In this document: positions 1 to 63,123 of the stretch, one piece after another
Numbering within the stretch: position 1 is the first letter of the stretch
Layout: each line of letters opens with the position of its first letter
Assembly (NCBI GenBank): GCA_045643185.1
Contig: JAZUKH010000280.1
Location: 1,448 to 65,447 of the forward strand
Direction of reading: 5' to 3'
DNA from: Myxococcota bacterium
GTDB lineage: Bacteria; Myxococcota_A; Bradymonadia; UBA4248
Length of the DNA: 64,000 nucleotides
The notes under the pieces: generated by a model
Seen by the model: only the letters and a program-made list of their open reading frames with translations
Database searches by the model: none
What the model was told of the DNA's origin: nothing
Translations under genes and position numbers: made by a program

Positions 1-2457
1 CGCACAAACTTTTTGCTGGAAGAAGCAGCGGCTACACAAGCGCGCGGTGGCAATATTTATGATGATTTTATTCAGCCCTTCTATTTTGGAACACTGAATG
101 TGCCCGCCAATACACGTAATGCACGTGCCAAAGCGTTTGGAAAGATCCCTTTTTTGAACGGCGGTCTGTTTCAACCGACGGTAGAAGAAATCGAAAATCC
201 TCACCGGACCGTAGATAACGCAGTGTTTTTTGGAATTTGTGAGTCGATTCTGGGTGACTGGGAATTTACGGATCACGAGACACACCACGCCGATTCGGCG
301 CTCGACCCGATGATGCTTGGACACGTGTTTGAAATGCTGATGCCACGATCTCTTCGCGCACAAACCGGATCATTCTACACACCCATGAACCTGGTGCGTG
401 ACGTGACCCATCGTGCCATGAGCAACTGGCTGGAACGCCGATGCGGACTGACGAGCGCTGCGGCAGAAGCATTGATCGACCAAGGTCTGACAACAACATT
501 GAGCGATTCAGACATCGAACAGGTGCTGTCAGCGTTGACACAGGCGCGTATCCTCGATCTATCGGCTGGCTCCGGCGCGTTTTTGCAGGAAGCAAGCACC
601 GTACTTCATCGAGCCATTTCAGCACTGCACACCCGTCTGGGCTCGTCCGTCGCCCCTGCAGAGCTCGCCCGCGATATTTTGCTCAACAATATCTTTGGCG
701 TCGACATTCTGGAACCGGCCAACCGCATTTGTGAGCTGCGATTGTGGCTGACGACGCTTCAATATTACCAGACGGGCGCAGCGATCCCGCCGCTGCCAAA
801 TCTGGACATGAACATCCGATGCGGACATGCGCTCATCGACTTAACACAGTACGCTATGACCCTGGGCATCGACGCGACACGTCTGACCAATGCTCAGAGC
901 GCAGCCTTGCGCGCCCAATACGGTCGCGCAAACGGCCGCGAAAAACAACAACTCGCCCAGTCGATCGAAACCCTTGACCACGCCGTCGAACAACACCTCG
1001 TCGAAACGCTCAAGACAACACTACAAGCCAAAATCCATGACATTCAGTCGGCATTTCCGGCCAAAAACTTGTTTGGCGAAACGAACGTGATGCCCTTCAA
1101 CACGCGTCAGGCACTACAGGCACTGCAGGCACACCTCAACGCGCTCGAAAGCAAACACCTGAACGGCACGTTTTCGTTCGACGTGCATTATGCGGAGGTC
1201 ATGCGGGAAGGCGGCTTTGACATTATTTTGGGCAATCCGCCATGGTATTCGCTCCACACACGTGATTGCGATGAACAGGCGACACTGCGTCGTCTCTACC
1301 AAACGGCGCAAAAGCCCGACCAACAGCCAAACTTCACAAATCAGTCTATGGACATCAGCGCGCTTTTTGTCGAAAAGTCGCTCCAGGTGACGCGCCCTGG
1401 CGGCGTCGTCGCCATGCTTTTGCCCAACAAACTGTTTAACGCGCCAAGTTACGAACGTTTTCGTCAATACGTGGCGGTTCACGCTGAAACGGTCGATATG
1501 AAAGACTGGTCGGCCCTTTCGCCCTTCGACGCGGCGACCTACCCGGCCGACGTCATTCTGATGAAACGACATGCGCCATATCACGCAAACACAGGCTGGT
1601 TAACCGATCACGACGCCGTTCGGAGCGTTCTTTTGGAAGATACGCCATTGATGCGGAATGTCGCTTCAGACAACACGCTTCAATCACACTTCACGCTCAA
1701 ACGAGGTCTGCGCACAAGCGCCAACGATCTGTTTTTGTGCCGCCTCACCGAATCAGACGCTCAAACAGGCATTTCACAAGTCCAAGTAGCGTCAGAAGCC
1801 GAACCGGTCTCAATCGAAACGAGCCAACTGTACCCGATCATTCGTGGCACCGACATTCGTCCATTTCACGTGACGATCCAACACCACCTGATCTTGACAC
1901 ACACGCTGACCGATTTGAGCAAGCCGATGACAGATCTGCCAGCCCTGACCCAAAAGTGGTTTCAGCGTCACCAGACTCGACTTTCGTCACGTTCGGGCAT
2001 TCGACGTGGGCCTTACACAGCAATCTTTGGCGCTAGTCAATGTTTACGACGTCCCAAAGTCGTATGGCGAGACATTGGTCGAATGCTTTCGGCCGTTTTT
2101 GAACCGCGCGAAGACGTATTTGTGCTGAACACGGCCTATTACATACCCGTAGCTGACGAGCGCATGGGATATCTTCTGAGCGGTTTTTTGAACTCAACGC
2201 CGATCCGCGAATACTGCCAAAAGCGCGCGGAATATGCGCGCGGTGGCTATCGACGCTTTTTTGCCTGGTTGATCGGCGAAATACCATGGACGTTTGACCA
2301 AGCATTTCAAAACAGTGCGCTTGGTGAACGCATCATCGCGATTTCGAAAGAAGCGCACGCGATGGCGACGAGTCTGGGCATTCCGCTGAGGCTTCAGACA
2401 CAACTGGATCACTGTGTTTTGCGCGCGATGGCGCAGCAAGGAGCAAAATATGAATGA
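1..2457 (+). CDS. N6-adenine DNA methyltransferase, gamma-class (Eco57I/TaqI/PglX-like) with C-terminal TaqI_C-like specificity region; 5' end cut by window edge
   Basis: Frame is open from nt 1 (the track starts at TTG 13). Motifs: 'FLNGGLF' helper motif, SAM motif I 'ILDLSAGSGAFL', catalytic motif IV 'GNPPWY', and downstream 'LYPIIRGTDIRPFHV' resembling a TaqI_C target-recognition domain. Confidence 0.75.
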   Translation, partial: RTNFLLEEAAATQARGGNIYDDFIQPFYFGTLNVPANTRNARAKAFGKIPFLNGGLFQPTVEEIENPHRTVDNAVFFGICESILGDWEFTDHETHHADSALDPMMLGHVFEMLMPRSLRAQTGSFYTPMNLVRDVTHRAMSNWLERRCGLTSAAAEALIDQGLTTTLSDSDIEQVLSALTQARILDLSAGSGAFLQEASTVLHRAISALHTRLGSSVAPAELARDILLNNIFGVDILEPANRICELRLWLTTLQYYQTGAAIPPLPNLDMNIRCGHALIDLTQYAMTLGIDATRLTNAQSAALRAQYGRANGREKQQLAQSIETLDHAVEQHLVETLKTTLQAKIHDIQSAFPAKNLFGETNVMPFNTRQALQALQAHLNALESKHLNGTFSFDVHYAEVMREGGFDIILGNPPWYSLHTRDCDEQATLRRLYQTAQKPDQQPNFTNQSMDISALFVEKSLQVTRPGGVVAMLLPNKLFNAPSYERFRQYVAVHAETVDMKDWSALSPFDAATYPADVILMKRHAPYHANTGWLTDHDAVRSVLLEDTPLMRNVASDNTLQSHFTLKRGLRTSANDLFLCRLTESDAQTGISQVQVASEAEPVSIETSQLYPIIRGTDIRPFHVTIQHHLILTHTLTDLSKPMTDLPALTQKWFQRHQTRLSSRSGIRRGPYTAIFGASQCLRRPKVVWRDIGRMLSAVFEPREDVFVLNTAYYIPVADERMGYLLSGFLNSTPIREYCQKRAEYARGGYRRFFAWLIGEIPWTFDQAFQNSALGERIIAISKEAHAMATSLGIPLRLQTQLDHCVLRAMAQQGAKYE

Positions 2458-4417
2458 CATGACCTGGAATGACGCGCTTCAAGCGCGCTTTGCGCCATCG
2501 ACACCAACCGAGTTTAAAGACCAACCGAGTTTGAGCGAAGCTCAAGCGACGACGCTCGGTCATGCGCTTCGTATCATTGCGGATGACCACGCTGTGTTGT
2601 TGTGCGAAGACACGGGGACAGGCAAGACGTACGTCGCAGCGGCGTTAGCGAAGAACTTGTTGTCGCGCGGCACGATCGACAGCGTCGCGGTCGTCGGACC
2701 GGCCCATCTTTGTGGTATGTGGCGCACTGTACTGGCGCGTTTTGGGGTGAACGCGAGCTATTTGTCGTACCAAAGGGCGAGTTTGGGACATGAACCACGG
2801 GTACAGGGAAAAGCGTTGGTTTTGGTGGATGAGGCGCACGCGCTCAAAAACCCGACGACCCAAAGGTATCGCACACTCGCGCCGTTTTTGAAGCGTCACG
2901 CGCTTTGCCTGATCACCGCAACGCCGATCTCACTTGGTTTTGGCGACCTGAGTGCATTGCTTCAATTGTGTGGCCTGCCTGTCTCGATCCGGTCTGACAG
3001 CGACGCCCTGCGTATGTTTGCAATGTCACTCTGTCCGCGCTTTTTTGGCGCGCCGCTACGTCTCAATGAGGTCACCCACGAAGTGGTGCATCGCGCCATA
3101 CTTTTTGAGCTACCCAACGAGACCGAAGCCTTCGTCGATCTGTGTCTCGACACCCCCTGGCCCGTGTTTCAAAACGATCAAATGACGAATTCGACGCTGA
3201 TCCCACGCATTCTGCTTCACCGATTTCGCAGTCATCCGCACGCGAGCTTACTGTCGCTCAAACGCCTGCTTCGTTATTACGCGTCATGTCTTAAAACGGG
3301 CGCAATGCGTCCGATCACGCGCCGTGAATTCACGGCATTGTTTGGCCTTGAAGGCGTTCAACTGCCGCTCCCCTTCGGCCTTCGTGACGACGTCATGCCC
3401 ACTTCAGACGTACACACCATACTTGAACGCACGACGAGTCAGCTCTCGCGCATGATCGCGCTCGTGCAGACTATGCTTTCGTCCCCCGACATGCGCGTAC
3501 GAGCCCTGTTACCCGCCATTGCGGCGTCATCAGCCCCGGTCGTGCTGTTCACTCAATATGCCGACACCGCGCAGTTTGTGGCGCGTATCCTGGCTTCACA
3601 CACGGCGACTGGCTGCATCACCGCGTCGCAAGCGACGCTCAATGGACACACGATCGACCGTGACTTATTGCAAAACATGTTCGACCCCGATTTTGAATTA
3701 CCCGACACATGGCGAGCAGCCCATTTGCCCGTTCCACACGTATTGGTTGCGACCGATACACTGAGCGCTGGACACAATCTGCAACGAGCCGCCATTTTGT
3801 TCCACCTTGACCTGCCATGGAATCCAACCACGGTTCAGCAACGAGAAGGCCGTATTTTGCGCCATCACCAGCGTGCTGCGCGCGTCGAGCTGATCCGTCT
3901 TGAACCCCGTGCGATGCCTCCACGACTCGCAGCCATCGCTCAAAGCTTGACCGCGCGTTTTGAAGCGCGTCACGCGCTTCAAAACCAGTGGCACGACCCC
4001 TCGTTGATCACGAATCCAACGACGTTCATGCTCTCGGAGTCGCGTAAAATGCCTGGACTTTGGGCCAAGTTTGATGGCACTTGGTTGCCGATCCACCCAC
4101 AATTTGCGCGTGGTGCGCACATTTCACGTCGTCTTTCACTCCACGCTGCGTTGCTCCGCAGCGCACATCCCAATGCTTCCCAACTTCGCCGCCTCGTGGC
4201 CACACTCGCCCACGACCGCTACAACCCGTCCACGACGACGCGGCTATTGGCGCTTGAACGCTACGCCGAGATCACCGCACTTTGGCCCGCGCTCAACACG
4301 CCATTGAGCGACGACCCCGAAGCTGCTTTTGCTCAGATCGACGCACTACTCAACCAGTTTGCCGATCAACTGCCCGCCAACGCGACCGTCATGCTCGCAC
4401 AACGTGCCGCATGTTAA
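2450..4417 (+). CDS. SNF2-family (SF2) ATPase/helicase
   Basis: Walker A 'DTGTGKTYVAAA', SNF2-type 'VLVDEAHALKN' (DExH..KN), helicase motif VI 'QREGRILRHHQ'. Likely start is ATG 2450, preceded by an AGGAG RBS. Start overlaps the MTase stop (ATGAATGA), implying translational coupling. Confidence 0.7.
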   Translation: MNDMTWNDALQARFAPSTPTEFKDQPSLSEAQATTLGHALRIIADDHAVLLCEDTGTGKTYVAAALAKNLLSRGTIDSVAVVGPAHLCGMWRTVLARFGVNASYLSYQRASLGHEPRVQGKALVLVDEAHALKNPTTQRYRTLAPFLKRHALCLITATPISLGFGDLSALLQLCGLPVSIRSDSDALRMFAMSLCPRFFGAPLRLNEVTHEVVHRAILFELPNETEAFVDLCLDTPWPVFQNDQMTNSTLIPRILLHRFRSHPHASLLSLKRLLRYYASCLKTGAMRPITRREFTALFGLEGVQLPLPFGLRDDVMPTSDVHTILERTTSQLSRMIALVQTMLSSPDMRVRALLPAIAASSAPVVLFTQYADTAQFVARILASHTATGCITASQATLNGHTIDRDLLQNMFDPDFELPDTWRAAHLPVPHVLVATDTLSAGHNLQRAAILFHLDLPWNPTTVQQREGRILRHHQRAARVELIRLEPRAMPPRLAAIAQSLTARFEARHALQNQWHDPSLITNPTTFMLSESRKMPGLWAKFDGTWLPIHPQFARGAHISRRLSLHAALLRSAHPNASQLRRLVATLAHDRYNPSTTTRLLALERYAEITALWPALNTPLSDDPEAAFAQIDALLNQFADQLPANATVMLAQRAAC

Positions 4418-4456
4418 AACACTAGAGACACACTTTACTTTACATAAGACAACCCC

Positions 4457-4924
4457 ATGACCCACCGAACTAAACCTTTGTCCCCAACTGGCGGGCGCGT
4501 ATCAGAAGACGCGCATCTCCACCTATCCACCATGACGCGCACTGGGCGTCATGGCCGAATCGCCGAAAACCTCGTCGTCTGGTTTCTAAAAAACCGAGGC
4601 TACCACGTCGTCGACCGCAATTTTCGCACAACCACAGGTGAGATCGACATCATTGCGTTGGAACGCCGAAGCAATTTCCTGGCGATCCACTTTGTCGAAG
4701 TCAAATCCCGTTACGGTCACAGCCGTGCCATGCCCGAATACGCAGTGACCTATACCAAACAAAAGAAAATCTTTGGCACTGCGCGTTTTTGGATACTGAC
4801 CCATCGCTATCGTCGAACGGTCTACCACTTCGACATAGCTGCCGTCCTGATCCCCGATCGACGTTTACCACACATTCGTTATCTGCCTGACGCCTACTAT
4901 CCGCGTCAGGAGTTTGGTTGGTGA
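4457..4924 (+). CDS. yraN: YraN/UPF0102-family PD-(D/E)xK endonuclease-like protein (N-terminally extended; alternative start near 4532)
   Basis: Matches the YraN consensus: 'GRHGRIAENLVVWFLKNRGYHVVDRNFR..GEIDIIA', 'FVEVKSR', 'KQKKIFGTARFWI', 'FDIAAV'. Begins 40 bp after the helicase gene. Confidence 0.7.
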   Translation: MTHRTKPLSPTGGRVSEDAHLHLSTMTRTGRHGRIAENLVVWFLKNRGYHVVDRNFRTTTGEIDIIALERRSNFLAIHFVEVKSRYGHSRAMPEYAVTYTKQKKIFGTARFWILTHRYRRTVYHFDIAAVLIPDRRLPHIRYLPDAYYPRQEFGW

Positions 4925-4930
4925 ACGACG

Positions 4931-5503
4931 CTAGTTCACCGACATGAGCACATCCCCAAACACAGGGGCGTAGCTTTTGAACCAGTTTTCGGGAGCGACC
5001 GCGAAAAAGACCACATGATTCGCCTCCGTCGGGTGAATGATCGCGGCCATCAGTTGAACGCGTTCGCCCCCCACTCGTCCCGTATACTCGATCCTGTCGA
5101 CCGTTTCACCGTTGGCCAGCGTCACAGACTGGGTCGAAGCAGGCTTAAACTCGGCAAAGAACCAGTCATTGAGCGCCTGATTGAGTTGTTCTGGTGTCTG
5201 AACCGAGTCTGAGCGATAGACTGCGCCCATCACGGCCGAATAATTGACATCGACAAAAGCGACACCGCCTTGTTTCCCGTCACGATACTGCCATTCAGCC
5301 GGGAGTTTGAGAGCGATCTTGTCTTTTGACGTCACGTCCTTTAACTCAATCTGAGCGAGTTTTTGAACGATCGCTTGAGTTTCGTCAGGCACTTTGGCCT
5401 TGGCCAAAGGGGCAGAAACCAACAGAATGAAACTGACACAAAGAATGGGAAATAGAGAGCGTTTCATGAGAAAAGCCAAGGCGGCATAAGAAGTCTGTCG
5501 CAT
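4931..5503 (-). CDS. hypothetical exported (periplasmic) protein
   Basis: N-terminal signal peptide 'MKRSLFPILCVSFILLVSAPLAKA' (true start may be the internal Met). No recognisable catalytic motif. Confidence 0.5.
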   Translation of the reverse strand: MRQTSYAALAFLMKRSLFPILCVSFILLVSAPLAKAKVPDETQAIVQKLAQIELKDVTSKDKIALKLPAEWQYRDGKQGGVAFVDVNYSAVMGAVYRSDSVQTPEQLNQALNDWFFAEFKPASTQSVTLANGETVDRIEYTGRVGGERVQLMAAIIHPTEANHVVFFAVAPENWFKSYAPVFGDVLMSVN

Positions 5504-5530
5504 GACGCAGAATCGAGGTAAATGACAAAA

Positions 5531-5560
5531 AAAGCCCCGTTTAACGGGGCTTATTTGAAG
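5531..5560 (-). terminator. rho-independent terminator for gene 5575..6849
   Basis: Hairpin AGCCCCGTTAAACGGGGCT followed by a T-run on the minus strand, immediately 3' of the stop. Confidence 0.6.
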
Positions 5561-5574
5561 ATGACTATGCAGGA

Positions 5575-6849
5575 CTAGAGTTTTTCTTCGGTCGCGATGG
5601 CGTGAAGTTTACCCACGAGACCATCGGTGGACTTATCGATATCACCGAGGATCGCCATGATCTGCATCATACGTTTGCGATAGCGTTCGAGGGCGTTGGG
5701 GCTAGCAGCATAGAGTTTTGCACGATCAAGAAGCATAATCTCATCCGCAAAGACGACCTCTTCATTCCCGTTACGATCCTGAATAACGTACATCAGACGA
5801 TTCGGGACGGTGAGCCCATCGGGCACGGGTGAGCTTTCAACGAGATGTTTCTCTTTGATTTCTTTTTCGGACGGTGCTTTGAAGTTACGGGCGTCGGTTG
5901 CCTTGCCACTTTCTTTGAGCTGAGCAAAAACGCGATCGGCCTCTTCATCGTCGGTGATAGCACGTTTGACCTGATAGATCTCGGTAGAACGCATGGCTTC
6001 GACGGTACGATCAGCTTTAGGATAGGAAACTTTCTTAGGATCCATATCAGGATCGGTATCGACAATGGACATCATCTGAACCGGATCGATTTTGAGGGCA
6101 TAAACGATGTTTTTATCGGTTGCGCTATTTTGGCCAAGGAGAGTCTGAATTTCGTCCATATCGAGTTCAGTCTGTTCGATATGGGAATCGAGGATGCGGC
6201 CGAGAGTCATGGTGCCAGCAGCATAACCACGGATATCGCTAAGCGGGTTCTGGAGGGCATTACTGGCCATCGTGATGGCTTCAGCAGGGATATCCGCGCT
6301 GACATCGACCATGAAGTTTTTCTCTTTGTAGCGTTTGATGGTCTCGTTAAAGAATTTCTCGTTATATTCGAGAACGCCAGCGCCGAGAGATTCAGAGCGC
6401 TGTTTAAAGACCTGAGCGAATTCCTGGAAGTTGTCGACGCGGGGACGAATGGTCTCATCGATCGTTTTCGCGATATCGATACGGGCATTAACATCACTGC
6501 GATCGGAAAGAACGCCCTGCCAGAGGTAACCGATGAAAGCGCCGAAGATAAGGGCGATGATCACAACGGCAACGACCATGATATCTTTGCGTTTATCTTT
6601 GGCGTATTTGGAACCGAGGGAGGCGTCGACGAGACGACCGTCGAAGTCGAACATTTTCGCGCGTTCGCGTTCCTGTTCTTCCTCAATGATGATCTCCTGT
6701 TGCTGTTTCTGGGGAACTTTAAAGCCACCGCCGAAACCGCCGAAACCGCCACCACCTTTATTTGCGCCACCAAAGCCGCCACCGAAGCCACCGGCTTTAG
6801 ACGAACCAAATCCACTTCCATTATTTCCAGACTGATTATTGGAATTCAA
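5575..6849 (-). CDS. hypothetical single-pass membrane protein, Gly-rich N-terminus (paralog 1)
   Basis: N-terminal 'GGFGGGFGG' low-complexity region, TM helix 'IMVVAVVIIALIFGAFIGYLW', and a C-terminal domain homologous to 7092..8210 ('NRLMYVIQDRNGNEEVVFADEIMLLDR' vs 'NRVMYEVTDRRGNDNQLFADEVLLVDR'). Confidence 0.65.
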   Translation of the reverse strand: MNSNNQSGNNGSGFGSSKAGGFGGGFGGANKGGGGFGGFGGGFKVPQKQQQEIIIEEEQERERAKMFDFDGRLVDASLGSKYAKDKRKDIMVVAVVIIALIFGAFIGYLWQGVLSDRSDVNARIDIAKTIDETIRPRVDNFQEFAQVFKQRSESLGAGVLEYNEKFFNETIKRYKEKNFMVDVSADIPAEAITMASNALQNPLSDIRGYAAGTMTLGRILDSHIEQTELDMDEIQTLLGQNSATDKNIVYALKIDPVQMMSIVDTDPDMDPKKVSYPKADRTVEAMRSTEIYQVKRAITDDEEADRVFAQLKESGKATDARNFKAPSEKEIKEKHLVESSPVPDGLTVPNRLMYVIQDRNGNEEVVFADEIMLLDRAKLYAASPNALERYRKRMMQIMAILGDIDKSTDGLVGKLHAIATEEKL

Positions 6850-7091: not shown

Positions 7092-8210
7092 CTATTCAGC
7101 GTCTTTATCTTTAATAAAGACGGAGAGGTCACTGCTGATATTCGCACTCACCTTACGGGTATCTTCAACGAGGCGTTTGATCTGATCGGTACGCTGATTG
7201 TAACGGTCGAGGGCATTCGCAGCCTTACCGAAAAGAAGCTTACGATCGACGAGAAGAACTTCATCGGCGAAAAGCTGATTGTCATTACCACGACGGTCGG
7301 TGACTTCGTACATCACGCGGTTCGGAAGATCAAACTCGGCAAGACTCTTCGATTCAGCTTTGGTCGGAACATAGTCACGATACTGACGCTGTGCCGTCGA
7401 CCAACCTTTCTCGGATTTATAGGCCGAATACATATCGCTAAGTTCCTGATTATCTTTCACAACATTGCGATATGTAAAGATGCTGACTACACCGTTCGCA
7501 AACTGATCACGTGGTGCTGCAGAACCCAGGTAATAAATACCATCGCTGTTGATCTGCATCGCATAGGTCACTTCAGAAACACCTTTCTTTTCGATCAACA
7601 TCTGGATCTCTTCCTCGTCGATGCGAGTTTCGTTGAGGTGGATGCTCAGAAGCTGCGTCAGAAGCATCGTGTTCGCAGAATATTCGCGAAGCGCTTTCAC
7701 AGGATTGGCCAAAGGATTACCATTAAGAAGAATGACTTCCGACGAAACCTCGCTCGACATATCGAGAAGGAAATCGAACGACTGGAAGTTGCTCATAACA
7801 GAGTCAAAAAGCGACTTGTTGTAGCTCTCCGCACCGGAAAGTTTGTCGAATTCCGTTGCAAATTTGTTGAAGTTCGCAACCTTGTTATCAACGGAACGTT
7901 TGATCGTGGAAGCTATGGTCGATTTACGTTTCTCGTCGTTATTGCTTTCGCTAATGTTACCAAAGATCAAACCAATGATCGCACCCACAATGGCAACGAC
8001 AACGATGATTGCGACGACCTTGATAACCTGTTTGTTATCGCTCCCCTGGCCAGTGTAGTTGAGCTGCTTTAACTCTTCCTCGTCAATGGGGACTTCAGGC
8101 GGGACATAGTTATAGTCATCCGGCTCCGGCTCATACTCAATGACAACTTCCGGTTCCAATTTTTTAACTTCATTGCTCGAAGAATTCAACACGGCCTCCT
8201 GAGCTCGCAA
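7092..8210 (-). CDS. hypothetical single-pass membrane protein (paralog 2 of 5575..6849)
   Basis: TM helix 'VIKVVAIIVVVAIVGAIIGLIFG'. C-terminal domain aligns with paralog 1. The antisense ORF 7086..8072 is rejected. Confidence 0.65.
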   Translation of the reverse strand: MRAQEAVLNSSSNEVKKLEPEVVIEYEPEPDDYNYVPPEVPIDEEELKQLNYTGQGSDNKQVIKVVAIIVVVAIVGAIIGLIFGNISESNNDEKRKSTIASTIKRSVDNKVANFNKFATEFDKLSGAESYNKSLFDSVMSNFQSFDFLLDMSSEVSSEVILLNGNPLANPVKALREYSANTMLLTQLLSIHLNETRIDEEEIQMLIEKKGVSEVTYAMQINSDGIYYLGSAAPRDQFANGVVSIFTYRNVVKDNQELSDMYSAYKSEKGWSTAQRQYRDYVPTKAESKSLAEFDLPNRVMYEVTDRRGNDNQLFADEVLLVDRKLLFGKAANALDRYNQRTDQIKRLVEDTRKVSANISSDLSVFIKDKDAE

Positions 8211-18150: not shown

Positions 18151-19557
18151 CTATTTGGCGAGTAGCTGTCCGCAGGCGCCACCCACGTTGACGCCACGGG
18201 CTTCTCGAAGCGTGACAAGGCATCCGGCGTCCTGCATGATCTTAATAAACGCCTGGATGCGCTCATTCGTCGGTGCCTGAAACACGAGACGCGGCGTAGG
18301 ATTGTATGGAATCACGTTGATGTTGTGCGGCAAGTCCTTGGCAAACTCGGCCAGACGCCGCGCATCGTCGTCGGAATCGTTGACATCGCGCAACAAAACG
18401 TATTCGAGCAAAACTTTTTCGTGCGAGCGATAAGGCCAGTCGACGAGCGCCTCGTGGATCTGAGCAAGCCCAAAGCGTTTGGTGATGGGCATGAGTTTGG
18501 CACGAACTTCGTCGGTCGTGGCATTGATGCTGATGGCCAGATTGGGACGCACCTTGGCGTTTTTGAGGCGCGGCAGCTCACTCAGCACGCCAGACGTCGA
18601 CAAGGTCATGCGCACCGGCGCAATGTTCAAACCGCACTCGCAAGAAAGCACCTCGATCGCGCGCAGCACGTTGTCGAGGTTCATCAACGCTTCGCCCATG
18701 CCCATGAACACGAGGTTGACCGAGTGCGAACGTTCAGGCCCGTAATTTTTGATCGCCCAAATGACCTGTTGCACGATCTCCCCCGCGGTGAGATTGCGTC
18801 GCAAACCGAGCGTCGCCGTAGCGCAAAACGCGCAGTTCATGGCGCAGCCGACCTGTGACGAGAGGCACAGCGTGACGCGCGGCGACTTGACGTCGCGCGG
18901 CATGTGAATGGTTTCAACCCGAGCGCCGTCTTTCAGCTCGTAAATGATGCGCGTCGTGCCGTCGTCGGCGCTTCGCGTCTCGGCAATGCGCATCGGCGTC
19001 GTGTCAAACGCCGTTTCAATCAGCATGGCAGGCTTGTGACCGATATCGGGCGCGTCGTCGACGTAGGTCCACGGCCTTTGCAGCGCGCGAAACAGGTGTT
19101 CGCCGCCAGCACGCGTGGGCAGTGCCTCCAGATCTTCGGGCAAAGCCGCATAGATCGAGGGATTCTGAGCCAATGCGTTTTGGACGGCTGGCAAAAACTC
19201 ACGATCAGCTTCGGTAAGGTCGAGCTTTTCGGCCTCGTCGATCGTAAACCAACCCACGGCCTGGTGTTCATTGAGCGTCATCTGGTCGGATTCGAGCCAC
19301 ACGCGGTAAAGGTGCACGCGGATCGTGCGATCGGGGTCATGCGTTTCGCGCGTCGTAACGTACTGCGTCGGATAGGCGGTAAGCCCAAGTTCCTCGTGCA
19401 GCTCACGGGCCAGCGCGTCTTCGGGACGTTCACCGGGTTCAATTTTGCCGCCGGGAAACTCCCATTGGCCGCCATGAGACTTTTGAGCACCGCGCTGGGC
19501 GGCAAAAAAACGCCCTCGTCTGAGGATGAGGGCGGCAACGACTTCTATTTCAAGCAT
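18151..19557 (-). CDS. rlmN: fusion protein: N-terminal NUDIX (MutT-like) hydrolase plus C-terminal radical-SAM rRNA/tRNA m2A methyltransferase RlmN
   Basis: NUDIX box 'GGKIEPGERPEDALARELHEELGL'. RlmN motifs 'SSQVGCAMNCAFCATATLGLRRNLTAGEIVQQV' and C-terminal 'GGACGQL'. Confidence 0.85.
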   Translation of the reverse strand: MLEIEVVAALILRRGRFFAAQRGAQKSHGGQWEFPGGKIEPGERPEDALARELHEELGLTAYPTQYVTTRETHDPDRTIRVHLYRVWLESDQMTLNEHQAVGWFTIDEAEKLDLTEADREFLPAVQNALAQNPSIYAALPEDLEALPTRAGGEHLFRALQRPWTYVDDAPDIGHKPAMLIETAFDTTPMRIAETRSADDGTTRIIYELKDGARVETIHMPRDVKSPRVTLCLSSQVGCAMNCAFCATATLGLRRNLTAGEIVQQVIWAIKNYGPERSHSVNLVFMGMGEALMNLDNVLRAIEVLSCECGLNIAPVRMTLSTSGVLSELPRLKNAKVRPNLAISINATTDEVRAKLMPITKRFGLAQIHEALVDWPYRSHEKVLLEYVLLRDVNDSDDDARRLAEFAKDLPHNINVIPYNPTPRLVFQAPTNERIQAFIKIMQDAGCLVTLREARGVNVGGACGQLLAK

Positions 19558-38806: not shown

Positions 38807-41800
38807 CTAACTCAACGACTTAGCAGCTTTTTTCATCTTCTTGTCGCAGAGTTTCAGCACATCGAACATGGAGTTAACGGACTCGACTGCGCTTGGATCA
38901 AGCCCCTGAGCCGCGTTGACGATCTTAACGACCTGATCGGCGTATTGAATGACCGCGTCAAAACGTGTTGACCAAGTCTTGACGAAGTCTTCTGACGCCG
39001 AAGTGCCAGACGAGACGGCAGGATTGTTTTGCGCACTGGCGAGTAAGGAACGGAGAGATTCGATCTGAATCGAGTTCGAACTAAGCGAGGCGTTGGCTTC
39101 GTCACGTTCGGCACGAAGTTGCGCCGATTCGGCTTCGAGAGCCGCCACGCGTTCTTTCGCTTCATCGGCAGCGGCGCGAAGCGCTTCGATATCACCGGCC
39201 GCATTCTGCATTTCAGCAATCTCAGCGCGCAATGCAGAAATTTGGTTACCGGCATCAACCGCTTCGGCACGAAGCTGTTCGAGTTCCGCACCCGTGATCT
39301 CGTTGGCTGACTGAGCCATGTTCAACGAGCTTTGAACTAAGTTAAACTCCTCTTTCGTGGAATCAAGTTCCTCTTTCAAATTTTCAATTTGCGTTTCGAG
39401 GTAAACGTTCTCTTCACGCGCTTTTTCAAGTTCCTGCTTGAGTTCCGCCACTTCGGCACCAGAGTTGGTCGAGCTTTCACTGGCTTCGTTGAGCTTGGAA
39501 CGCAGATCTTGAATTTCGCCAAAGTGACGCGTTTTTTCATCGTTGGATGCTTCGAGTTCGTCGCGCAACGCAACAAGTTCCTGCTGAAGTTTGAGGTTTT
39601 CTGCACAAACTTCACCGAGCTTGTCGTTGAGCGCCATGATCTGGCCATCGAAATCACCTTTAGCTTCGTTCGAGGCATCAAGTTGAGCACGCAACTGAAC
39701 GATCTCTTCCTCATTCGCGTTGGACTCAGCACGCAATTCGTCGAGTTCCGCGTTTTGACGGCTCACACAAGCCTGATATTCATCGACTTGGTCTTGAAGA
39801 GCCTTCGCCTGGTTTTGACTTTCAACGAGTTGTTGCTGCAAGGCTTCGGCATTGGCAGCATTCGCAGCAATGACGTTTTGAGCTTCACCAAGTTGCTGCG
39901 TCAGACTGGCAACAGCCTCGTCCTGACCAGCGACCGAGTTTTGAGCCTGAGCACATTGAGCCTGAACGGTTTCGATGTCCAACTTGAGTTCGGATACCTG
40001 ATCACGCAGCTTTTCGAGTTCTTCATTGGCGGCACCAAGCTCCGATTCGGCTTTGACGCGCGCCACTTCAGCATTATCACATTGTTGAAGTGCAGATGCA
40101 GCCTGTTCGAGTGCCTCGGCGCGCTCAGCTTCAGCCTCAGCCTGAGCTTTTTGGGCACGTTCCAACAGGGCGCTCATTTCTTCCGCCGCACGTTCGGCCA
40201 TGGCCTGAGCTTTTTCGGCCTCCAAGCAATTCTTTTCGACATCGGCCATTTGTTCGCGCAGATCCGACATTTCAGCTTCAGCTGACATGCGCGCATCATC
40301 TGACTCGGTGATGCCGTCATGTACAGCGCGCAACTCATTTTCTGCAGCGACACGAGCTTCCTTGGCCACCGACAGACTTTCTTTCAACGTAGCGACTTCG
40401 TTTTCGAGAACGCCAACTTTTTCAAGAACGTCGTCGCGTTCAGCCATCGTCTTTTCTAGGCACACACCAAGTTTTTCAGCTTCGTGTTCGGCGGCTTTCA
40501 AACGAGTCCTAAGTTGCGTCACCTCAATTTCGAGAGCCGCCGGGTCAGGCACAGCGCCAAGATCAGGCGCACTCATTGTGTAATTGTTTTTCTGAGCATA
40601 GACGAATTGAGGTTCAGACTCTTCCTGAATGCAACTGATCTCGGAACGCGGATCATCGATACAAGTCAGATTGCTAACGGACTGAACGACAGCGGGGATT
40701 TCAACCGATTCACCATTAACTTCTGGATCGTACGCATCACGCGCATCGGCTTCGTTCAGCGCCATCGAGAGCTTATCGACCTGAACGATCTCAGATTCTG
40801 CAGGCACAGCAACGTCGGCAAGGAATTCACCAGGTTGGTCGAGCGCATCCTCAATGGGGCTGATGTCTTCGTCCAACTCATTTTCATCCATATCGTCGTC
40901 GTAGCTGCCAACCGACACGTCATTGAAAGCATCGAAGTCACCGTTCTGATCGTTAACCTCGTCAGACAATGCGGACTCATCAGCATCGTCAATGGCTTCG
41001 ACGATAACGGACTCTCCAACGCGATTGGCCAAGGCATCGCGGTCGTCATCAACAACACTTCGGGCATCGGTCACCGGCAAAGGTGTATCGTAACCAGCGT
41101 CCTGACCCTCGTCTGCCATCGGAACCGCGTCGTCTGCCATCGGAACCGCGTCATCTGCCATCGGAACCGCGTCGTCTGCCATCGGAACCGCGTCGTCTGC
41201 CATCGGAACTGCGTCGTCTGCCATCGGAACTGCGTCGTCTGCCATCGGAACTGCGTCGTCTTCCATCGGAACTGCGTCGTCGTAGTCATGATTTTGGTCA
41301 TACGAAGCTTCCGCCACGTCATTTTGAGGCGCATTCATCGGAGCGTAAGCATCGACGAACTCTTGTTCCTCGCGATAAGCCGGATTTTCGCTACCATGAT
41401 AGCTATTTTCAACGTGGTTATCGGCATAAAGCACATTTTCGGGCATGACCGAATTGCCATAAGCCTCCTCGTTGGCCAAATTAGCGCTGCTATCGTATTC
41501 ATGTGGCACAAAACCGCGTTGCGGATGAGGCACCATGCGACCGCCGCGATCACGCTGATTTCGGCGTGGTGCGGGCGGTACCATATTGTTCACGGGGTTG
41601 CCTCCAGCGGCATTAACGGCCGGCATCTGAGATGACGAAGGCGCCGACACACCACTTGCTTCCCCAGCACGACCGATTGGAACGCTACGCGTCACACGTC
41701 GCGCCGTCGGCGCGATCTGAGCCGACGGCCCAACAGAACTATCTCGTCCAAAGCGGGCACCACGAGCCCTGGCGCCATAACGATCACCAAGCGGCGCAGG

Positions 41801-43201
41801 CGCGATCGGCATTTCTTCATGATCGACCATCTCTTCGACCGGGCCATTGTTCACCGGTTCGTCAGCCTGAATCTGCCCTGACACAGGTTCAGACACCGGT
41901 GCAGACGCATCGACCGGTTCTTCCTGAAATTCTTCGTCGCCTTCCATGGGCGGCATGCTCGCCCCCTCGTTTGAGGCCACTGATTCATAAGGCCCCTCGT
42001 CATTCGTCGCCGCGTCGATCTCATCGAGGCTAAACGCCTGGGTCGGATTAGGCGACGATCCAAACGATTCCTCGCCTCTGTCGTCAAAGCGACGCTCTTC
42101 CAGATCCTGATCTTCAACAGGAGCCGGTTCATTCGCGGCTTCAAAGTTGGCCGGTGCCCCAAGCTCTTCCTGCGGCTCGAACGCCGGCATCGGCGCCTGT
42201 GCAGGCGCAGCCTGCGCCACACGTTCCATTTCCTGATCAAAAGAAGGCTGGTTGATCATCGTCGGACGGAACGTACCGTTACTGTTCGGAATGGGACGCA
42301 TGCCCACATTATTAGGTAACGACGGACTTGGAATTGACGGTTGTTGTGCGCCAATACCACTCATCGGGATCTTGGGCGCACCTGGCATAGACGCAAAACC
42401 AGCAGGTTTGTTCTGAGGCATGCCAACCATCGGCGAACCAGGCATACCAGGCATAGGACTATTCGGCATTGGCCCACGACCACTCGCCAGCGAGCCGCCT
42501 GGCATCTGACCAGGCATGCCAACCATCGGGCCACCAGGCATCTGACCCCCCATCGGGCCACCAGGCATCTGACCACCCATCGGACCACCAGGCATACCAC
42601 TCATCGGACCGCCAGGCATCTGACCGGGCATGCCAACCATCGGACCTTTGGGCGGCATCTGACCAGGCATGCCAACCATCGGACCGCCAGGCATCTGACC
42701 GGGCATACCAACCATCGGCTTGTTCTGAGGCATCTGACCAGGCATCTGACCGGGCATACCAACCATCGGCTTGTTCTGAGGCATCTGACCAGGCATGCCC
42801 ATCGGAGCGCCGGGCATCGGACGTATCATGCCCGGTTGAGGCGCGGCACCAGGTAGTTCAGAAAACTCCAAATTCGATTCACCACAACGCAATACGTCAC
42901 CAGGACGAATCTCAAAAGGTTCCATCGGCTTGATGCGCATATTGTTCACATAACAACCGTTCGAGCTGTTATTGTCGATAAAATAATACCGACCGTTCTG
43001 GAAAACGACTTTAGCGTGAAATCGTGAAACAGCCTTCGTCATGATCCTCAGCATGTTACCTTCGTTGCGACCTATGGTCACTTCCGGCTGCTGCGCATTG
43101 ACATCGGCATAAAAAGACTGAAAATTCTGATCCCTATAGACAATTCGCGCCACGATGCATCTCCTTAAACGGATTTTTAGGCCCTCCCTTAGGGCATACA
43201 T
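38807..43201 (-). CDS. giant FHA-domain protein with Pro/Gly/Met-rich repeats, (DDAVPMA)8 repeat and about 650-aa coiled-coil C-terminus
   Basis: N-terminal FHA ('TIGRNEGNMLRIM...FIDNNSSNGCYVNN'). 'MPGQMPGGPMVGMPGQ' repeats. Eight copies of 'DDAVPMA'. Heptad-rich SMC/myosin-like tail. Confidence 0.75.
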   Translation of the reverse strand: MYALREGLKIRLRRCIVARIVYRDQNFQSFYADVNAQQPEVTIGRNEGNMLRIMTKAVSRFHAKVVFQNGRYYFIDNNSSNGCYVNNMRIKPMEPFEIRPGDVLRCGESNLEFSELPGAAPQPGMIRPMPGAPMGMPGQMPQNKPMVGMPGQMPGQMPQNKPMVGMPGQMPGGPMVGMPGQMPPKGPMVGMPGQMPGGPMSGMPGGPMGGQMPGGPMGGQMPGGPMVGMPGQMPGGSLASGRGPMPNSPMPGMPGSPMVGMPQNKPAGFASMPGAPKIPMSGIGAQQPSIPSPSLPNNVGMRPIPNSNGTFRPTMINQPSFDQEMERVAQAAPAQAPMPAFEPQEELGAPANFEAANEPAPVEDQDLEERRFDDRGEESFGSSPNPTQAFSLDEIDAATNDEGPYESVASNEGASMPPMEGDEEFQEEPVDASAPVSEPVSGQIQADEPVNNGPVEEMVDHEEMPIAPAPLGDRYGARARGARFGRDSSVGPSAQIAPTARRVTRSVPIGRAGEASGVSAPSSSQMPAVNAAGGNPVNNMVPPAPRRNQRDRGGRMVPHPQRGFVPHEYDSSANLANEEAYGNSVMPENVLYADNHVENSYHGSENPAYREEQEFVDAYAPMNAPQNDVAEASYDQNHDYDDAVPMEDDAVPMADDAVPMADDAVPMADDAVPMADDAVPMADDAVPMADDAVPMADEGQDAGYDTPLPVTDARSVVDDDRDALANRVGESVIVEAIDDADESALSDEVNDQNGDFDAFNDVSVGSYDDDMDENELDEDISPIEDALDQPGEFLADVAVPAESEIVQVDKLSMALNEADARDAYDPEVNGESVEIPAVVQSVSNLTCIDDPRSEISCIQEESEPQFVYAQKNNYTMSAPDLGAVPDPAALEIEVTQLRTRLKAAEHEAEKLGVCLEKTMAERDDVLEKVGVLENEVATLKESLSVAKEARVAAENELRAVHDGITESDDARMSAEAEMSDLREQMADVEKNCLEAEKAQAMAERAAEEMSALLERAQKAQAEAEAERAEALEQAASALQQCDNAEVARVKAESELGAANEELEKLRDQVSELKLDIETVQAQCAQAQNSVAGQDEAVASLTQQLGEAQNVIAANAANAEALQQQLVESQNQAKALQDQVDEYQACVSRQNAELDELRAESNANEEEIVQLRAQLDASNEAKGDFDGQIMALNDKLGEVCAENLKLQQELVALRDELEASNDEKTRHFGEIQDLRSKLNEASESSTNSGAEVAELKQELEKAREENVYLETQIENLKEELDSTKEEFNLVQSSLNMAQSANEITGAELEQLRAEAVDAGNQISALRAEIAEMQNAAGDIEALRAAADEAKERVAALEAESAQLRAERDEANASLSSNSIQIESLRSLLASAQNNPAVSSGTSASEDFVKTWSTRFDAVIQYADQVVKIVNAAQGLDPSAVESVNSMFDVLKLCDKKMKKAAKSLS
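41108..41282. repeat. 21-bp tandem repeat (about 8.5 copies) encoding (DDAVPMA)n
   Basis: GTCTGCCATCGGAACCGCGTC units with minor variants (C/T, G/A) seen directly in the sequence. Confidence 0.85.
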
Positions 43202-52595: not shown

Positions 52596-55500
52596 TTAGT
52601 ACACGTTGAACTGACAGGATTCGTTGCAACTACTCACCTTGGGATCGCGGAAGTCGCAGGCTTCGTCGCCGTTCTTGATGCCATCGCCGCAGTAGGCCGC
52701 GCGCGTACAGTTGGTATTGCAACCGCCGTAAGCGCCCGTGTTGCCGTCCGTACCATTGTCACATTCTTCGCCAGCGTCGACATGACCGTCGCCGCAGAAG
52801 GCATTGAGCTTACACTTGGTCGAGCAACCGCCATAAGCGTCGTCATTGTTATTCGCGCCGTTATCGCAGGCTTCTTCGGAATCAAGCACACCGTCACCGC
52901 AGAAGTGTTCTAAGCCAGAACACGTAGCGTTACAACCGTTATAGCGGCCTGAGCCGTTGGCATCGCCATCGTCACAGACTTCTTTCGGACCATCGACCGT
53001 CGAATCGTCGTACTGAACGATGCCATCGCCGCAACGCGGACCAAGCGTACAGTCTGTACGGCAACCATTGTAAAGGGCGTTGCTGTTGTTTTCGCCATTA
53101 TCGCAGATCTCGGGATGATCAGCGTCACCGTTGAGTATGCCGTCACCGCAATAGGCGTTGAGCGTACAGCTTGTGGAGCAGCCGCCATAGAGGTTATCTT
53201 CGTTGGCTGCGCCCTTATCACAATATTCCGGATGATCTTCATCACCGTTGACACGACCGTCACCGCAGTAAGCCGCGAGTCGGCAGTTCTTCTTGCAGCC
53301 GCCATAAGCGTCGCTGAAGTTGCCCGTGCCGGGGTCGCAGGTCTCACCAGCTTCAGTGTCGATGTTTTTATCACCGCAGTAAGGTGCGCGCGTGCAGTCG
53401 GCGTTACAGGAGCCATAGACACCCGTATTGCCTTCCGTGCCGTAGTCGCATTCTTCCGGATGATCCGCATCACCGTTCTTCATGCCATCACCGCAGTAGG
53501 GGCCGAGCTGGCAAGTCGAACGACAGCCGTTGTAGGCACCCGTGTTGCCGTTAGGATCGTCGCAGACTTCATTGTCAGTATCGACAACGCCGTCGCCGCA
53601 GTAGGCCGCGAGTTGGCAATCCTTCGTGCAACCACCGTATTCGTTGTTGTTGTCATCGCCATAGTCGCAAGCTTCGGGGTGATCTGCGTCGCCATTCTTT
53701 ATGCCGTCACCGCAGAAGGCCGCGAGCGTGCAGTTGGCTTTACAACCGCCGTAGGCGCCCGTGTTACCAGCAGGATCGTCGCATTCTTCGTCGCCGTTCT
53801 TGATGCCGTCGCCGCAGAACTGGACGTAGCCGGAGCAATCGGCGTTGCAACCGTCGTAGACGTCGGCGCCATTGTGTTCGCCATCGTCACAGACTTCGTC
53901 GCCGTTCTTGATGCCGTCACCGCAGTAGGCCGCGCGCGTACAGTTGGCTTTGCAGCCGCCGTAGGCGCCCGTGTTACCAGCAGGATCGTCGCATTCTTCG
54001 TTCACCGGGTCGAGAACGCCATCACCACAGACATTGGCTTTCGTACAGTCGGACTTGCAGCCGTTGTACGAATTATCATTGAATTCAACGCCGAAGTCAC
54101 AGGCTTCGTCGCCATTCTTGATGCCATCGCCGCAGTAAGCCGCGAGCGTACAATTGGCTTTACAACCACCATAAGCGCCCGTGTTGCCAGCAGGATCGTC
54201 GCATTCTTCGTCGCCGTTCTTGATGCCGTCGCCGCAGAACTGGACGTAACCCGAGCAATCCGAGTTACAACCGTTGTAAATGTCCTGACCATTCGTCGCG
54301 CCGTCATCACAGACTTCGGAGCCATTACGAATGCCGTCACCGCAGTAAGCCGCGAGCGTACAGTTGGCTTTGCAACCACCGTAGGCACCCGTGTTGCCTG
54401 CCGTGCCGTCATCACAAGCTTCGTCGCCGTTCTTGATGCCGTCGCCGCAGAACTGAACGTAACCCGAGCAATCCGAGTTACAACCATTATAGATATTCGA
54501 ACCGTTCGAAGCGCCATCATCACAGACTTCGGAACCATTACGGATGCCGTCGCCGCAGCGAGGTCCGAGCACGCAAGCTTTGGTGCAGCCATTGTACGCG
54601 GTGTTGCTGTTCTCAGCGCCGTTATCGCAGTCTTCGTCGCCATTCTTGGTGCCATCGCCGCAATAAGGACCGAGCTTACAAGTCGCATCGCAACCATCGT
54701 ATTCGCCCTTATTGTTTGCCGTGCCGTCGTCACACTGTTCGGAGCCGTTCTTGATGCCGTCGCCGCAGTAGGCGTTCAACATACAGAGCGTGGAGCAACC
54801 GCCATAGACGCCGTCAACGTTCGAGGAACCAAGGTCGCACTCTTCGTCGCCGTTCTTGTCGCCATCACCGCAGTACGGGCCAAGCTGGCAAGTAGACGTA
54901 CAACCATCGTAAGCACCCGTGTTGTTTGCCGTGCCGTTATCGCAGACTTCGTGACCTTCATCGACGATACCATCACCGCAATACGAAGCGAGCGTACAAT
55001 CTTGGTTGCAACCGTTGTATTCGCCCTTATTGTTTGACGTGCCGTTATCACACTGTTCGTTGCCGTTCTTGGTGCCGTCACCGCAGAAGGCGTTGAGTTT
55101 GCACTTGGTCGAGCAACCACCGTAGACACCGTCTTCGTTGGCTTTGCCATAGTCGCAGTCTTCGCCAGCGTCTTTGACGCCGTCGCCGCAACGCGGTGCG
55201 AACGTACAGTCAGCATTACAACCGTTATACGAACCGTCGTTGACGCCATCGTCACACTGTTCCTTGCCGTTCACCTTGCCGTCGCCGCAATACAACGCTT
55301 TGCCCGAGCAATCGGCATTACAGCTGTTGTCGCCATAAGCATCGTTGCTGTTACGAGCGCCGTTATCGCAGACTTCGTGGCCAGCATCGATGTTGCCATC
55401 GCCGCAACGCGGAGCCTTGCGACAAGTCGTCAAGCAACCGTCAGAGCCATAAGCTGAGTCGCTGTTCGACGCGCCGTTATCGCATTGTTCTTTGCCATTG

Positions 55501-62894: not shown

Positions 62895-63123
62895 ATTTCC
62901 TCCTATCACAAACAAAATTGTTTGTGCTCGTTTCGGATCCGCGCCCCCTATGGGCGCTATATACACAAATACACTATATTATATGCAATGCACGCTTCAA
63001 CTTCAACGACTAAGCACGCATTTTGACCATGGTTAGCCCAATTGCCTATTATTTTAGGCGCGGCTATTTCATACGCCGCGCCCGCGTCGCTTCTCCCTCG
63101 CTTGAGCCGCCCGTACCGGACGG

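Follow-up and report, generated by a model that had tools for sequence, protein, structure and literature searches.

Can a DNA methyltransferase, a Snf2-type motor and a YraN-type nuclease that are encoded side by side act as one enzyme system, and to which known systems would it be related? This question is raised by the beginning of a 64,000-nucleotide (nt) stretch of contig JAZUKH010000280.1 from a Myxococcota bacterium (the window, meaning the whole of this stretch), where the list of open reading frames (ORFs) gives three genes on the + strand, at 1-4924, for a methyltransferase (MTase), a Snf2 ATPase and YraN. An earlier note on this DNA had proposed a Type ISP-like or DISARM-like defence locus. 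We find that the gene arrangement is real, conserved and undescribed, and that its new elements are the association of YraN with a Snf2 motor and a family-wide, vertically inherited MTase-Snf2 module. Indeed, no paper was found that links YraN with an MTase, a Snf2 helicase or restriction, which agrees with the remark in the earlier note that a split trio with a YraN-like nuclease was undescribed, and no paper was found on Eco57I in Gemmatimonadaceae either. As to function, we tentatively read the operon as one that is resident, inherited vertically and encodes a translocase-nuclease whose action on DNA is coupled to methylation, akin to a split Type ISP, Type III or Hma enzyme and a member of none of these families.

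Three coupled genes at the window edge

The genes, their motifs and the signals at their borders are located as follows.

1-2457, + strand: 3' part of a gamma-class N6-adenine MTase, residues 199-1016 of 1016 amino acids (aa), with MmeI/PglX/Eco57I architecture
151-171, + strand: MTase motif FLNGGLF
550-585, + strand: MTase motif I, ILDLSAGSGAFL
1234-1245, + strand: MTase motif IV, NPPW
about 1834-2286, + strand: TaqI_C-type target recognition domain (TRD) of the MTase, after the helical connector and the MTase domain
2450-2457, + strand: start/stop overlap of the helicase gene with the MTase gene, 8 nt, ATGAATGA, preceded by GGAG
2450-4417, + strand: Swi2/Snf2-family ATPase, 655 aa, assigned from motifs and Pfam, by family a double-stranded DNA (dsDNA) translocase
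2615-2629, + strand: helicase Walker A, GTGKT
2828-2839, + strand: helicase DEAH
2915-2926, + strand: helicase TATP
3839-3862, + strand: helicase motif VI, QREGRILR
4457-4924, + strand: divergent YraN/UPF0102 PD-(D/E)xK endonuclease, 155 aa, assigned from Pfam, with the catalytic motif intact
4457-4555, + strand: N-terminal extension of YraN, delimited from the clade alignment
4637-4654, + strand: YraN GEIDII, containing D64
4694-4705, + strand: YraN VEVK, containing E81-V-K83
4910-4921, + strand: C-terminal EFGW tail of YraN; most proteins of the clade end in (E/P)FGW
4920-4940, no strand assigned: 7-bp hairpin GGTGAAC-N7-GTTCACC, covering the yraN stop codon and that of the convergent gene at 4931-5503, without a T-run

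All three ORFs and all the motifs quoted in the earlier note were located exactly, and the Pfam matches lie far beyond chance. The domain logic put forward there, an MTase with its TRD, a Snf2 motor and a PD-(D/E)xK nuclease as three coupled genes on one strand, is therefore retained. MTase frame 1 is open from the first base of the window to a TGA stop at 2455-2457, and the note was right that the gene is cut at the window edge: a 1016-aa protein of the same contig (P0121) is 100% identical over all 818 MTase residues in the window, so that the window begins at MTase residue 199 and a further 198 residues lie upstream. The start/stop overlap was also read correctly, with the helicase ATG at 2450-2452 placed just before the MTase stop and the GGAG 7 nt upstream of this ATG, which suggests that MTase and helicase are translationally coupled. 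The start methionine of the helicase is matched by P0001, a 99%-identical protein of another sample, and the window YraN is identical to the database protein P0241. Between the helicase stop at 4415-4417 and the YraN ATG at 4457 there are 39 nt. The hairpin that follows marks the operon end; it was missed by the terminator scan, and over 1-5600 the promoter and terminator scan gave about what shuffled sequence gives (promoter-like, 1 vs 2.8 expected; terminator-like, 12 vs 7.5).

The MTase matches Eco57I (6e-21, 75.7 bits), TaqI_C (2.5e-7, 31.4 bits) and MmeI_Mtase (6e-7, 29.3 bits) in Pfam, all above the gathering cut-offs, and has the architecture of a gamma-class N6-adenine MTase followed by a TaqI_C-type TRD. 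Neither motif I (D384, G388-S389-G390 and F392; DxSxGSG) nor motif IV (N610-P611-P612-W613) varies among 43 homologues, so the enzyme is presumably catalytically active. An AlphaFold2 (AF2) model of P0121, with a predicted local distance difference test score (pLDDT) of 85.9, matches CamA (an orphan MTase), M.BseCI, PglX/BrxX of BREX, MmeI (Type IIL) and DrdV in Foldseek; the E-values for MmeI and PglX/BrxX range from 1e-17 to 6e-18, and MmeI gives the best coverage, with a TMq of 0.53.

In the helicase, Pfam recognises SNF2-rel_dom (1.4e-9), Helicase_C (8e-9) and ResIII. The protein has the two RecA lobes, the Snf2-specific motifs and the helical insertions of the Snf2 group, and Walker A, DEAH, TATP and motif VI are invariant across its family. 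About 250 residues, namely an inter-lobe insertion and residues ~480-655, are specific to this family and unmatched in Pfam. A nuclease domain was not found in the helicase, nor does any nuclease match its C-terminal 175 aa.

YraN matches Pfam UPF0102 (PF02021) at 6.9e-23, with 81.3 bits vs a cut-off of 23.6. D64, E81 and K83 of the catalytic motif are intact in the window protein and invariant in the clade alignment. The earlier note had described this YraN as N-terminally extended, which is borne out by the UPF0102 domain covering only residues 36-130 of 155 and by the length of the clade proteins, 139-220 aa (mostly 140-187), vs 117-125 aa for most canonical YraN. The additions consist of a basic N-terminal extension (residues 1 to about 32), an insertion of 5-7 residues after beta-2, and the C-terminal EFGW tail, the last two of which the earlier note does not mention. 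Within the extension there is often an R-K-S-P-like motif (KPLSPTG in the window), which may serve for phosphorylation or for binding DNA. Tested against NCBIfam, YraN falls below all equivalog cut-offs (NF009154, 86.6 vs 109 bits; TIGR00252, 53.4 vs 69.05), which indicates a divergent subfamily with extra termini.

Previously studied YraN is a single-stranded DNA (ssDNA) endonuclease that cuts with little regard to sequence or structure and is needed for natural transformation; it interacts with ComM, a helicase, with which it acts in synergy, and in 34% of genomes its gene lies near comM (bioRxiv 10.1101/2024.02.06.579203).

Conservation and inheritance of the module

We scanned for the helicase family in one genome per GTDB species, followed by our own ORF and hidden Markov model (HMM) annotation and by contig look-ups. 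The 86 sequences obtained correspond to 85 loci plus the window and include a few duplicate records. In 78 of the 86, the helicase is directly preceded, on its own strand, by an MTase of about 1000-1100 aa; the hosts of the pair are uncultured gut and rumen Myxococcota, two Thermoanaerobaculia and about 64 Gemmatimonadaceae species. The junction between the two genes varies from overlaps of 4-8 nt (window, L168, L169) to gaps of 29-41 nt (L001, L086), and the pairwise identities of the MTases correlate with those of the helicases at r = 0.87-0.95. Both Thermoanaerobaculia loci have an NtrC-type sigma-54 response regulator after the pair, directly in L017 (11625-13100), where the helicase gene ends within the regulator gene, and with one gene in between in L024 (13573-14940).

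Only one Myxococcota clade has YraN behind the helicase, and within it no locus with enough sequence is an exception. The MTase-helicase-YraN trio was found in about 14 distinct loci (the window, L001, L006, L007, L009-L015, L086, L168 and L169), in about five flank contexts (window-type, L001, L015, L086/L169 and L168). Examples of these flanks are ExbBD-TonB downstream in L001, a P-type ATPase with ArsR in L086/L169, and LamB/type II secretion system pseudopilin genes upstream in L168/L169. Two more lineages (L004/L008 and L005) have helicase and YraN without an adjacent MTase, with a ratio of non-synonymous to synonymous substitution rates (dN/dS) of 0.12-0.15, a sign of purifying selection, which is an approximate value given that dS between L004 and L005 is saturated. 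Helicase-YraN adjacency in relatives, set beforehand as the test of the proposal in the earlier note, is thus kept throughout the trio loci and these two lineages. The spacers between helicase and yraN are mostly 100-290 nt; the window has its 39-nt gap and L007 an 8-nt overlap. Among the matches listed from metagenomes, this helicase or MTase stood near canonical YraN in 0 of 79 loci, and a scan with the clade-YraN alignment, again among the matches listed, gave canonical YraN loci only, bar one known locus.

Some of these loci deviate at the MTase position. In L004 (8407-9990), L005 (2241-3779) and L008 a Ser/Thr kinase gene replaces the MTase gene, 10-57 nt upstream of the helicase; the L004/L005 kinase is tail-anchored, with a C-terminal transmembrane (TM) helix and a disordered N-terminus. 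A comparison of this kinase with the N-domain of the MTase showed that they do not share it, and the kinase is probably an unrelated neighbour. The MTase orthologue of L014 (5064-8126) occurs in two ORFs (442 and 575 aa), either as a pseudogene or through an assembly error, with helicase and YraN intact.

The Gemmatimonadaceae loci (L018-L082; for example L045, 6681-12106) encode an Eco57I/MmeI-type MTase of ~1060 aa and a Snf2 helicase of ~740 aa. The pair occupies a fixed site, with the same NUDIX and rhodanese genes upstream in 34-35 of the 37 loci with enough sequence, MntH further upstream and an aldo-keto reductase downstream. Its pairwise identities follow those of the neighbouring genes (r = 0.73-0.90 for the MTase and 0.62-0.84 for the helicase; the simple ORF caller over-extended helicase starts in these GC-rich genomes, which lowers the identities and leaves the correlations unaffected), and the MTase evolves at about the same rate as the NUDIX and rhodanese genes. 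Moreover, the TRD is conserved to the same degree as the catalytic domain in both clades, which is atypical of restriction systems. The fixed locus, the co-divergence with neighbours and the conserved TRD together indicate vertical inheritance and a stable specificity, a signature that does not match a restriction system which moves and diversifies. The pair is adjoined neither by YraN nor by another nuclease gene in the ~64 Gemmatimonadaceae loci and the two Thermoanaerobaculia loci. MTase-Snf2 is an ancient two-gene core to which YraN is a lineage-specific addition.

Several of these observations weigh against a methylation-coupled translocase-nuclease. Since the pair stands without an adjacent nuclease in Gemmatimonadaceae and Thermoanaerobaculia, the core module needs none, and since L004, L005 and L008 keep helicase and YraN, these two work there without methylation encoded in cis. 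The vertical inheritance and the conserved TRD count on the same side, as does the absence of full-length relatives from the plasmid and phage collections searched, where tblastn with the helicase gave only partial generic Snf2 matches (at most 45% coverage, ~32% identity). Spacers of 100-290 nt are long for a tight operon and leave room for a separate yraN promoter. Finally, as YraN is nearly universal outside Bacillota, this yraN may simply be the housekeeping copy.

Many of the same facts would fit an explanation that we consider rather unlikely, though it deserves weight, in which yraN hitch-hikes in the operon of a self-sufficient, nuclease-free MTase-Snf2 module. In that case yraN would be an ordinary ComM-linked transformation nuclease, kept in place only by the shared transcription unit and the general synteny of the clade, and the pair could perform motor-assisted or ATP-gated adenine methylation (for epigenetic or chromosome maintenance) or a BREX-like non-nucleolytic exclusion. 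The nuclease-free pairs, their fixed site and co-divergence with neighbours, the conserved TRD and the long helicase-yraN spacers all speak for it. So does the fact that YraN is widely conserved outside Bacillota, often in mixed operons (bioRxiv 10.1101/2024.02.06.579203). General synteny is indeed high in the Myxococcota clade, since the opposite-strand flanking genes c32 and c37 are syntenic in 9-10 Myxococcota loci and co-diverge at r about 0.8. Nevertheless, the trio outlasts about five independent changes of both flanks, helicase and yraN overlap in L007 and are close together in the window, the clade YraN has distinctive conserved termini that canonical YraN does not have, and helicase and YraN stay joined after loss of the MTase.

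The loci without an MTase gene suggest another explanation, a Snf2-YraN recombination pair that is independent of the MTase, which we regard as unlikely though still serious. Here the Snf2 protein would replace or supplement ComM on D-loops and on recombination or transformation intermediates, and the MTase would be accessory or separate. Eukaryotic Rad54 with Mus81 offers an analogy for such a pair. In its favour, all clade loci examined have yraN next to a motor different from ComM, helicase and YraN are both intact and subject to purifying selection where no MTase gene is present, the context is a vertically inherited housekeeping one, and YraN has no documented function other than that of the nuclease in a helicase/nuclease pair (bioRxiv 10.1101/2024.02.06.579203). 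However, the ancestral and far more widespread partner of the helicase is the MTase, Snf2 proteins are dsDNA translocases and not hexameric branch-migration helicases like ComM, and neither ComM nor competence genes are present in the 64-kb window.

Relation to known systems and a possible mode of action

Partial HMM similarities could also be taken as a sign that a canonical defence system (DISARM class 1, BREX, Hma or the 'BREX-related' (BR) systems, Type IIG/IIL) is cut by the window edge. PADLOC shows such similarities to DrmD (3.5e-28), DrmMI (2e-17, 60 bits), PglX (1e-10), HmaA (1.4e-15, 54 bits) and Type IIG (1.5e-34), and its nearest models are the Type IIG MTase, DrmD, DpdE and HmaA, all components of systems resembling restriction-modification (R-M), a finding that also speaks for the methylation-coupled translocase-nuclease. 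This explanation is highly improbable, given that the partners are absent and the scores sub-threshold. The core of DISARM class 1 consists of drmA (helicase plus DUF1998), drmB (DUF1998) and drmC (PLD). None of these three genes occurs within 10 kb on either side of the locus in relatives (L001, L004-L016, L086, L168, L169) or downstream in the window; PglZ and BrxC/PglY of BREX are missing from every relative locus examined, and no DUF499 ATPase, integrase or transposase was seen in the relatives' loci, about 15 sets of flanks, or in the window. The contig itself reaches at most ~1.1 kb upstream of the MTase start, and the upstream context was inferred from relatives. In NCBIfam, DISARM_DrmD scores 111.6 vs a cut-off of 610 and BREX_1_MTaseX 47.6 vs 500 bits, and the similarity of the helicase to DrmD, DpdE, HmaA and BrxH, in NCBIfam and PADLOC alike, is partial and far under the trusted cut-offs. 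With the defining partners missing and the model scores sub-threshold, DISARM, BREX and Hma are excluded, and the DISARM-like label of the earlier note has to be dropped.

A canonical Type IIG/IIL enzyme would carry its nuclease within the MTase polypeptide, as in MmeI, whose N-terminal nuclease motif is D70...ExK. The earlier note had named a canonical Type IIG or Type I system with its nuclease domain upstream as a finding that would refute its proposal, and the complete N-terminus of P0121 has no recognisable nuclease. P0121 residues 1-198 alone have no match in PADLOC or Pfam; the Type IIG model that scores best in PADLOC has 1110 positions, and its alignment to P0121 (residues 144-720) begins only at position 212, with the first 143 residues of P0121 left unmatched. 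In alignments of 55 and 43 family members, acidic residues and lysine are not conserved at any position before residue ~139, and the secondary structure of the AF2 model, whose N-domain fold was not searched alone, shows no recognisable nuclease. As a nuclease domain was not detected by Pfam, PADLOC or conservation, a canonical Type IIG enzyme is not supported, a very divergent nuclease being formally possible. With MmeI (Type IIL) and PglX/BrxX (BREX) the MTase shares the helical connector, the gamma-MTase domain and the TaqI_C-like TRD. It differs from MmeI in that no N-terminal nuclease was detected and in its coupling to a Snf2 motor, and from PglX/BrxX in that the partners PglZ, BrxC and BrxL are absent and a Snf2 motor is coupled instead.

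Type ISP enzymes (LlaGI, LlaBIII) unite nuclease, motor, MTase and TRD in one polypeptide, in this order; their nuclease is of the Mrr type, an asymmetric site is recognised by the C-terminal TRD, and DNA is cleaved when enzymes that translocate from such sites with ATP collide head-on. The operon shares with them a PD-(D/E)xK nuclease, a superfamily 2 (SF2) dsDNA translocase, a gamma-class N6-adenine MTase and a TRD. Family membership fails, since the proteins are separate, the order is different (MTase/TRD, motor, nuclease, in three genes) and the nuclease is of the YraN type, without an Mrr domain. A further difference is that the core pair also occurs nuclease-free in other phyla and is vertically inherited with a conserved TRD.

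The Hma antiphage system comprises HmaA, a Snf2 helicase with a C-terminal PD-(D/E)xK nickase, the MTase HmaB and the DUF499 ATPase HmaC (PMC11232893). A 2025 preprint counts such systems among the 'BREX-related' ones, and in 21% of its type-1 systems the helicase has no fused nuclease, with other nucleases nearby or in the locus (bioRxiv 10.1101/2025.10.09.681413). Like Hma, the operon combines a Snf2 helicase, a PD-(D/E)xK nuclease and an N6-adenine MTase. Unlike Hma, no gene for a DUF499/BrxC-like ATPase was found here, the MTase is of the MmeI/Eco57I type with TaqI_C whereas that of Hma is of the DUF1156 type, the helicase begins at the motor core without the N-terminal Tudor domain and the fused restriction endonuclease of HmaA, and the context is a housekeeping one and no defence hotspot. 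By analogy, Hma and the 'BREX-related' systems show that Snf2 plus PD-(D/E)xK nuclease plus MTase is a working antiphage logic, which supports a translocase-nuclease here.

In comparison with ComM-YraN, the nuclease belongs to the same family (PF02021), its D...ExK residues are intact and its gene adjoins that of a DNA motor; the differences are the Snf2 dsDNA translocase as neighbour, the longer YraN with clade-specific termini and the MTase at the head of the operon. Eukaryotic DNMT5, with its fused Snf2 part, and DDM1/HELLS act in cytosine methylation on chromatin, and their likeness to the present motor is limited to the generic Snf2 core. Such Snf2-coupled methylation may serve as an analogy for the nuclease-free reading, not as a homologous system.

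From the identities, intact motifs, gene coupling and conservation described above, we infer complex formation, loading, substrate and role for the methylation-coupled translocase-nuclease as follows. The MTase/TRD subunit would recognise a fixed asymmetric site and methylate adenine on resident DNA, and might at the same time be the subunit that recognises DNA and loads the Snf2 motor onto it, as suggested by the order (MTase, then helicase) and coupling of the two genes in three phyla and by their co-divergence at r about 0.9. On unmethylated or incoming DNA, the motor would translocate and distort or open the duplex, and YraN, a low-specificity ssDNA endonuclease in other bacteria, could nick the exposed strand. 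The recruitment of YraN as the dedicated nuclease would be confined to one gut/rumen Myxococcota clade, in which its new termini (the basic N-extension and the EFGW tail) plausibly dock it to the motor. The role would then be the control or processing of incoming DNA, by restriction or by the handling of transformation intermediates, as a core genome function. Besides the intact motifs and the overlap of the MTase and helicase genes, this reading is favoured by the place of YraN directly behind the helicase in every clade locus with enough context, by the 79 canonical YraN loci without such neighbours, by the clade-specific termini of YraN and by the proven activity of YraN, in other bacteria, as an ssDNA endonuclease working with a helicase.

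We prefer the term resident system to defence island because of the vertical inheritance, the conserved TRD, the housekeeping context and the nuclease-free versions in two phyla. The proposal of a defence locus survives only in part: the domain logic fits it, and it is weakened by the vertical inheritance, the conserved TRD, the lack of plasmid and phage relatives, the nuclease-free pairs and the role of YraN with ComM. In sum, there is substantial evidence against classical defence as the role.

If the three proteins do act together, the operon would be a new split arrangement of the MTase/translocase/nuclease logic of Type I, Type III and ISP R-M and of Hma. It would be built on YraN, a nuclease family otherwise known only from transformation with ComM, and would be inherited with the core chromosome, not on a mobile island. 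If yraN hitch-hikes instead, the finding would be a widespread, uncharacterised MTase-Snf2 module, annotated merely as 'Eco57I domain protein' and 'DEAD/DEAH box helicase'. Two questions arise: what role a nuclease-free MmeI-like MTase has when it is permanently coupled to a Snf2 motor across a bacterial family, and whether YraN can switch helicase partners. Either answer would widen the view of how methylation, ATP-driven translocation and strand cleavage are coupled outside classical defence. A more speculative proposal, and one that we hold to be doubtful, combines these elements: the pair would be an unrecognised, vertically inherited system of motor-coupled adenine methylation (core in Gemmatimonadaceae and present in Thermoanaerobaculia and some Myxococcota), and the Myxococcota motor would have captured YraN to give a third helicase/nuclease pair besides ComM-YraN and RadA-CoiA, linking methylation to the fate of transforming DNA.

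Neighbouring genes and other features of the window

In the relatives, the genes upstream of the locus encode a class I S-adenosylmethionine (SAM)-dependent, small-molecule methyltransferase, phosphatidylserine decarboxylase and unknowns, and those downstream secreted unknowns and HtrA. The remaining genes of the window include those for ClpX, Der, signal peptidase, kinases and giant repeat proteins.

Beyond yraN, two tandem paralogues on the - strand (5575-6849 and 7092-8210) encode proteins of 424 and 372 aa with a Gly-rich or acidic N-terminus and one TM segment, without a Pfam match. This pair is kept downstream of yraN in ~9 related loci, together with the 190-aa gene at 4931-5503. Three other ORFs of the window lie on the - strand: a giant one of 3456 aa (52596-62966) contains at least 8 DUF4215 repeats; one of 1464 aa (38807-43201) combines an N-terminal FHA domain with a long C-terminal coiled coil, which gives Fez1/Filament-like matches; and one of 468 aa (18151-19557) has an N-terminal NUDIX domain fused to a radical-SAM domain.

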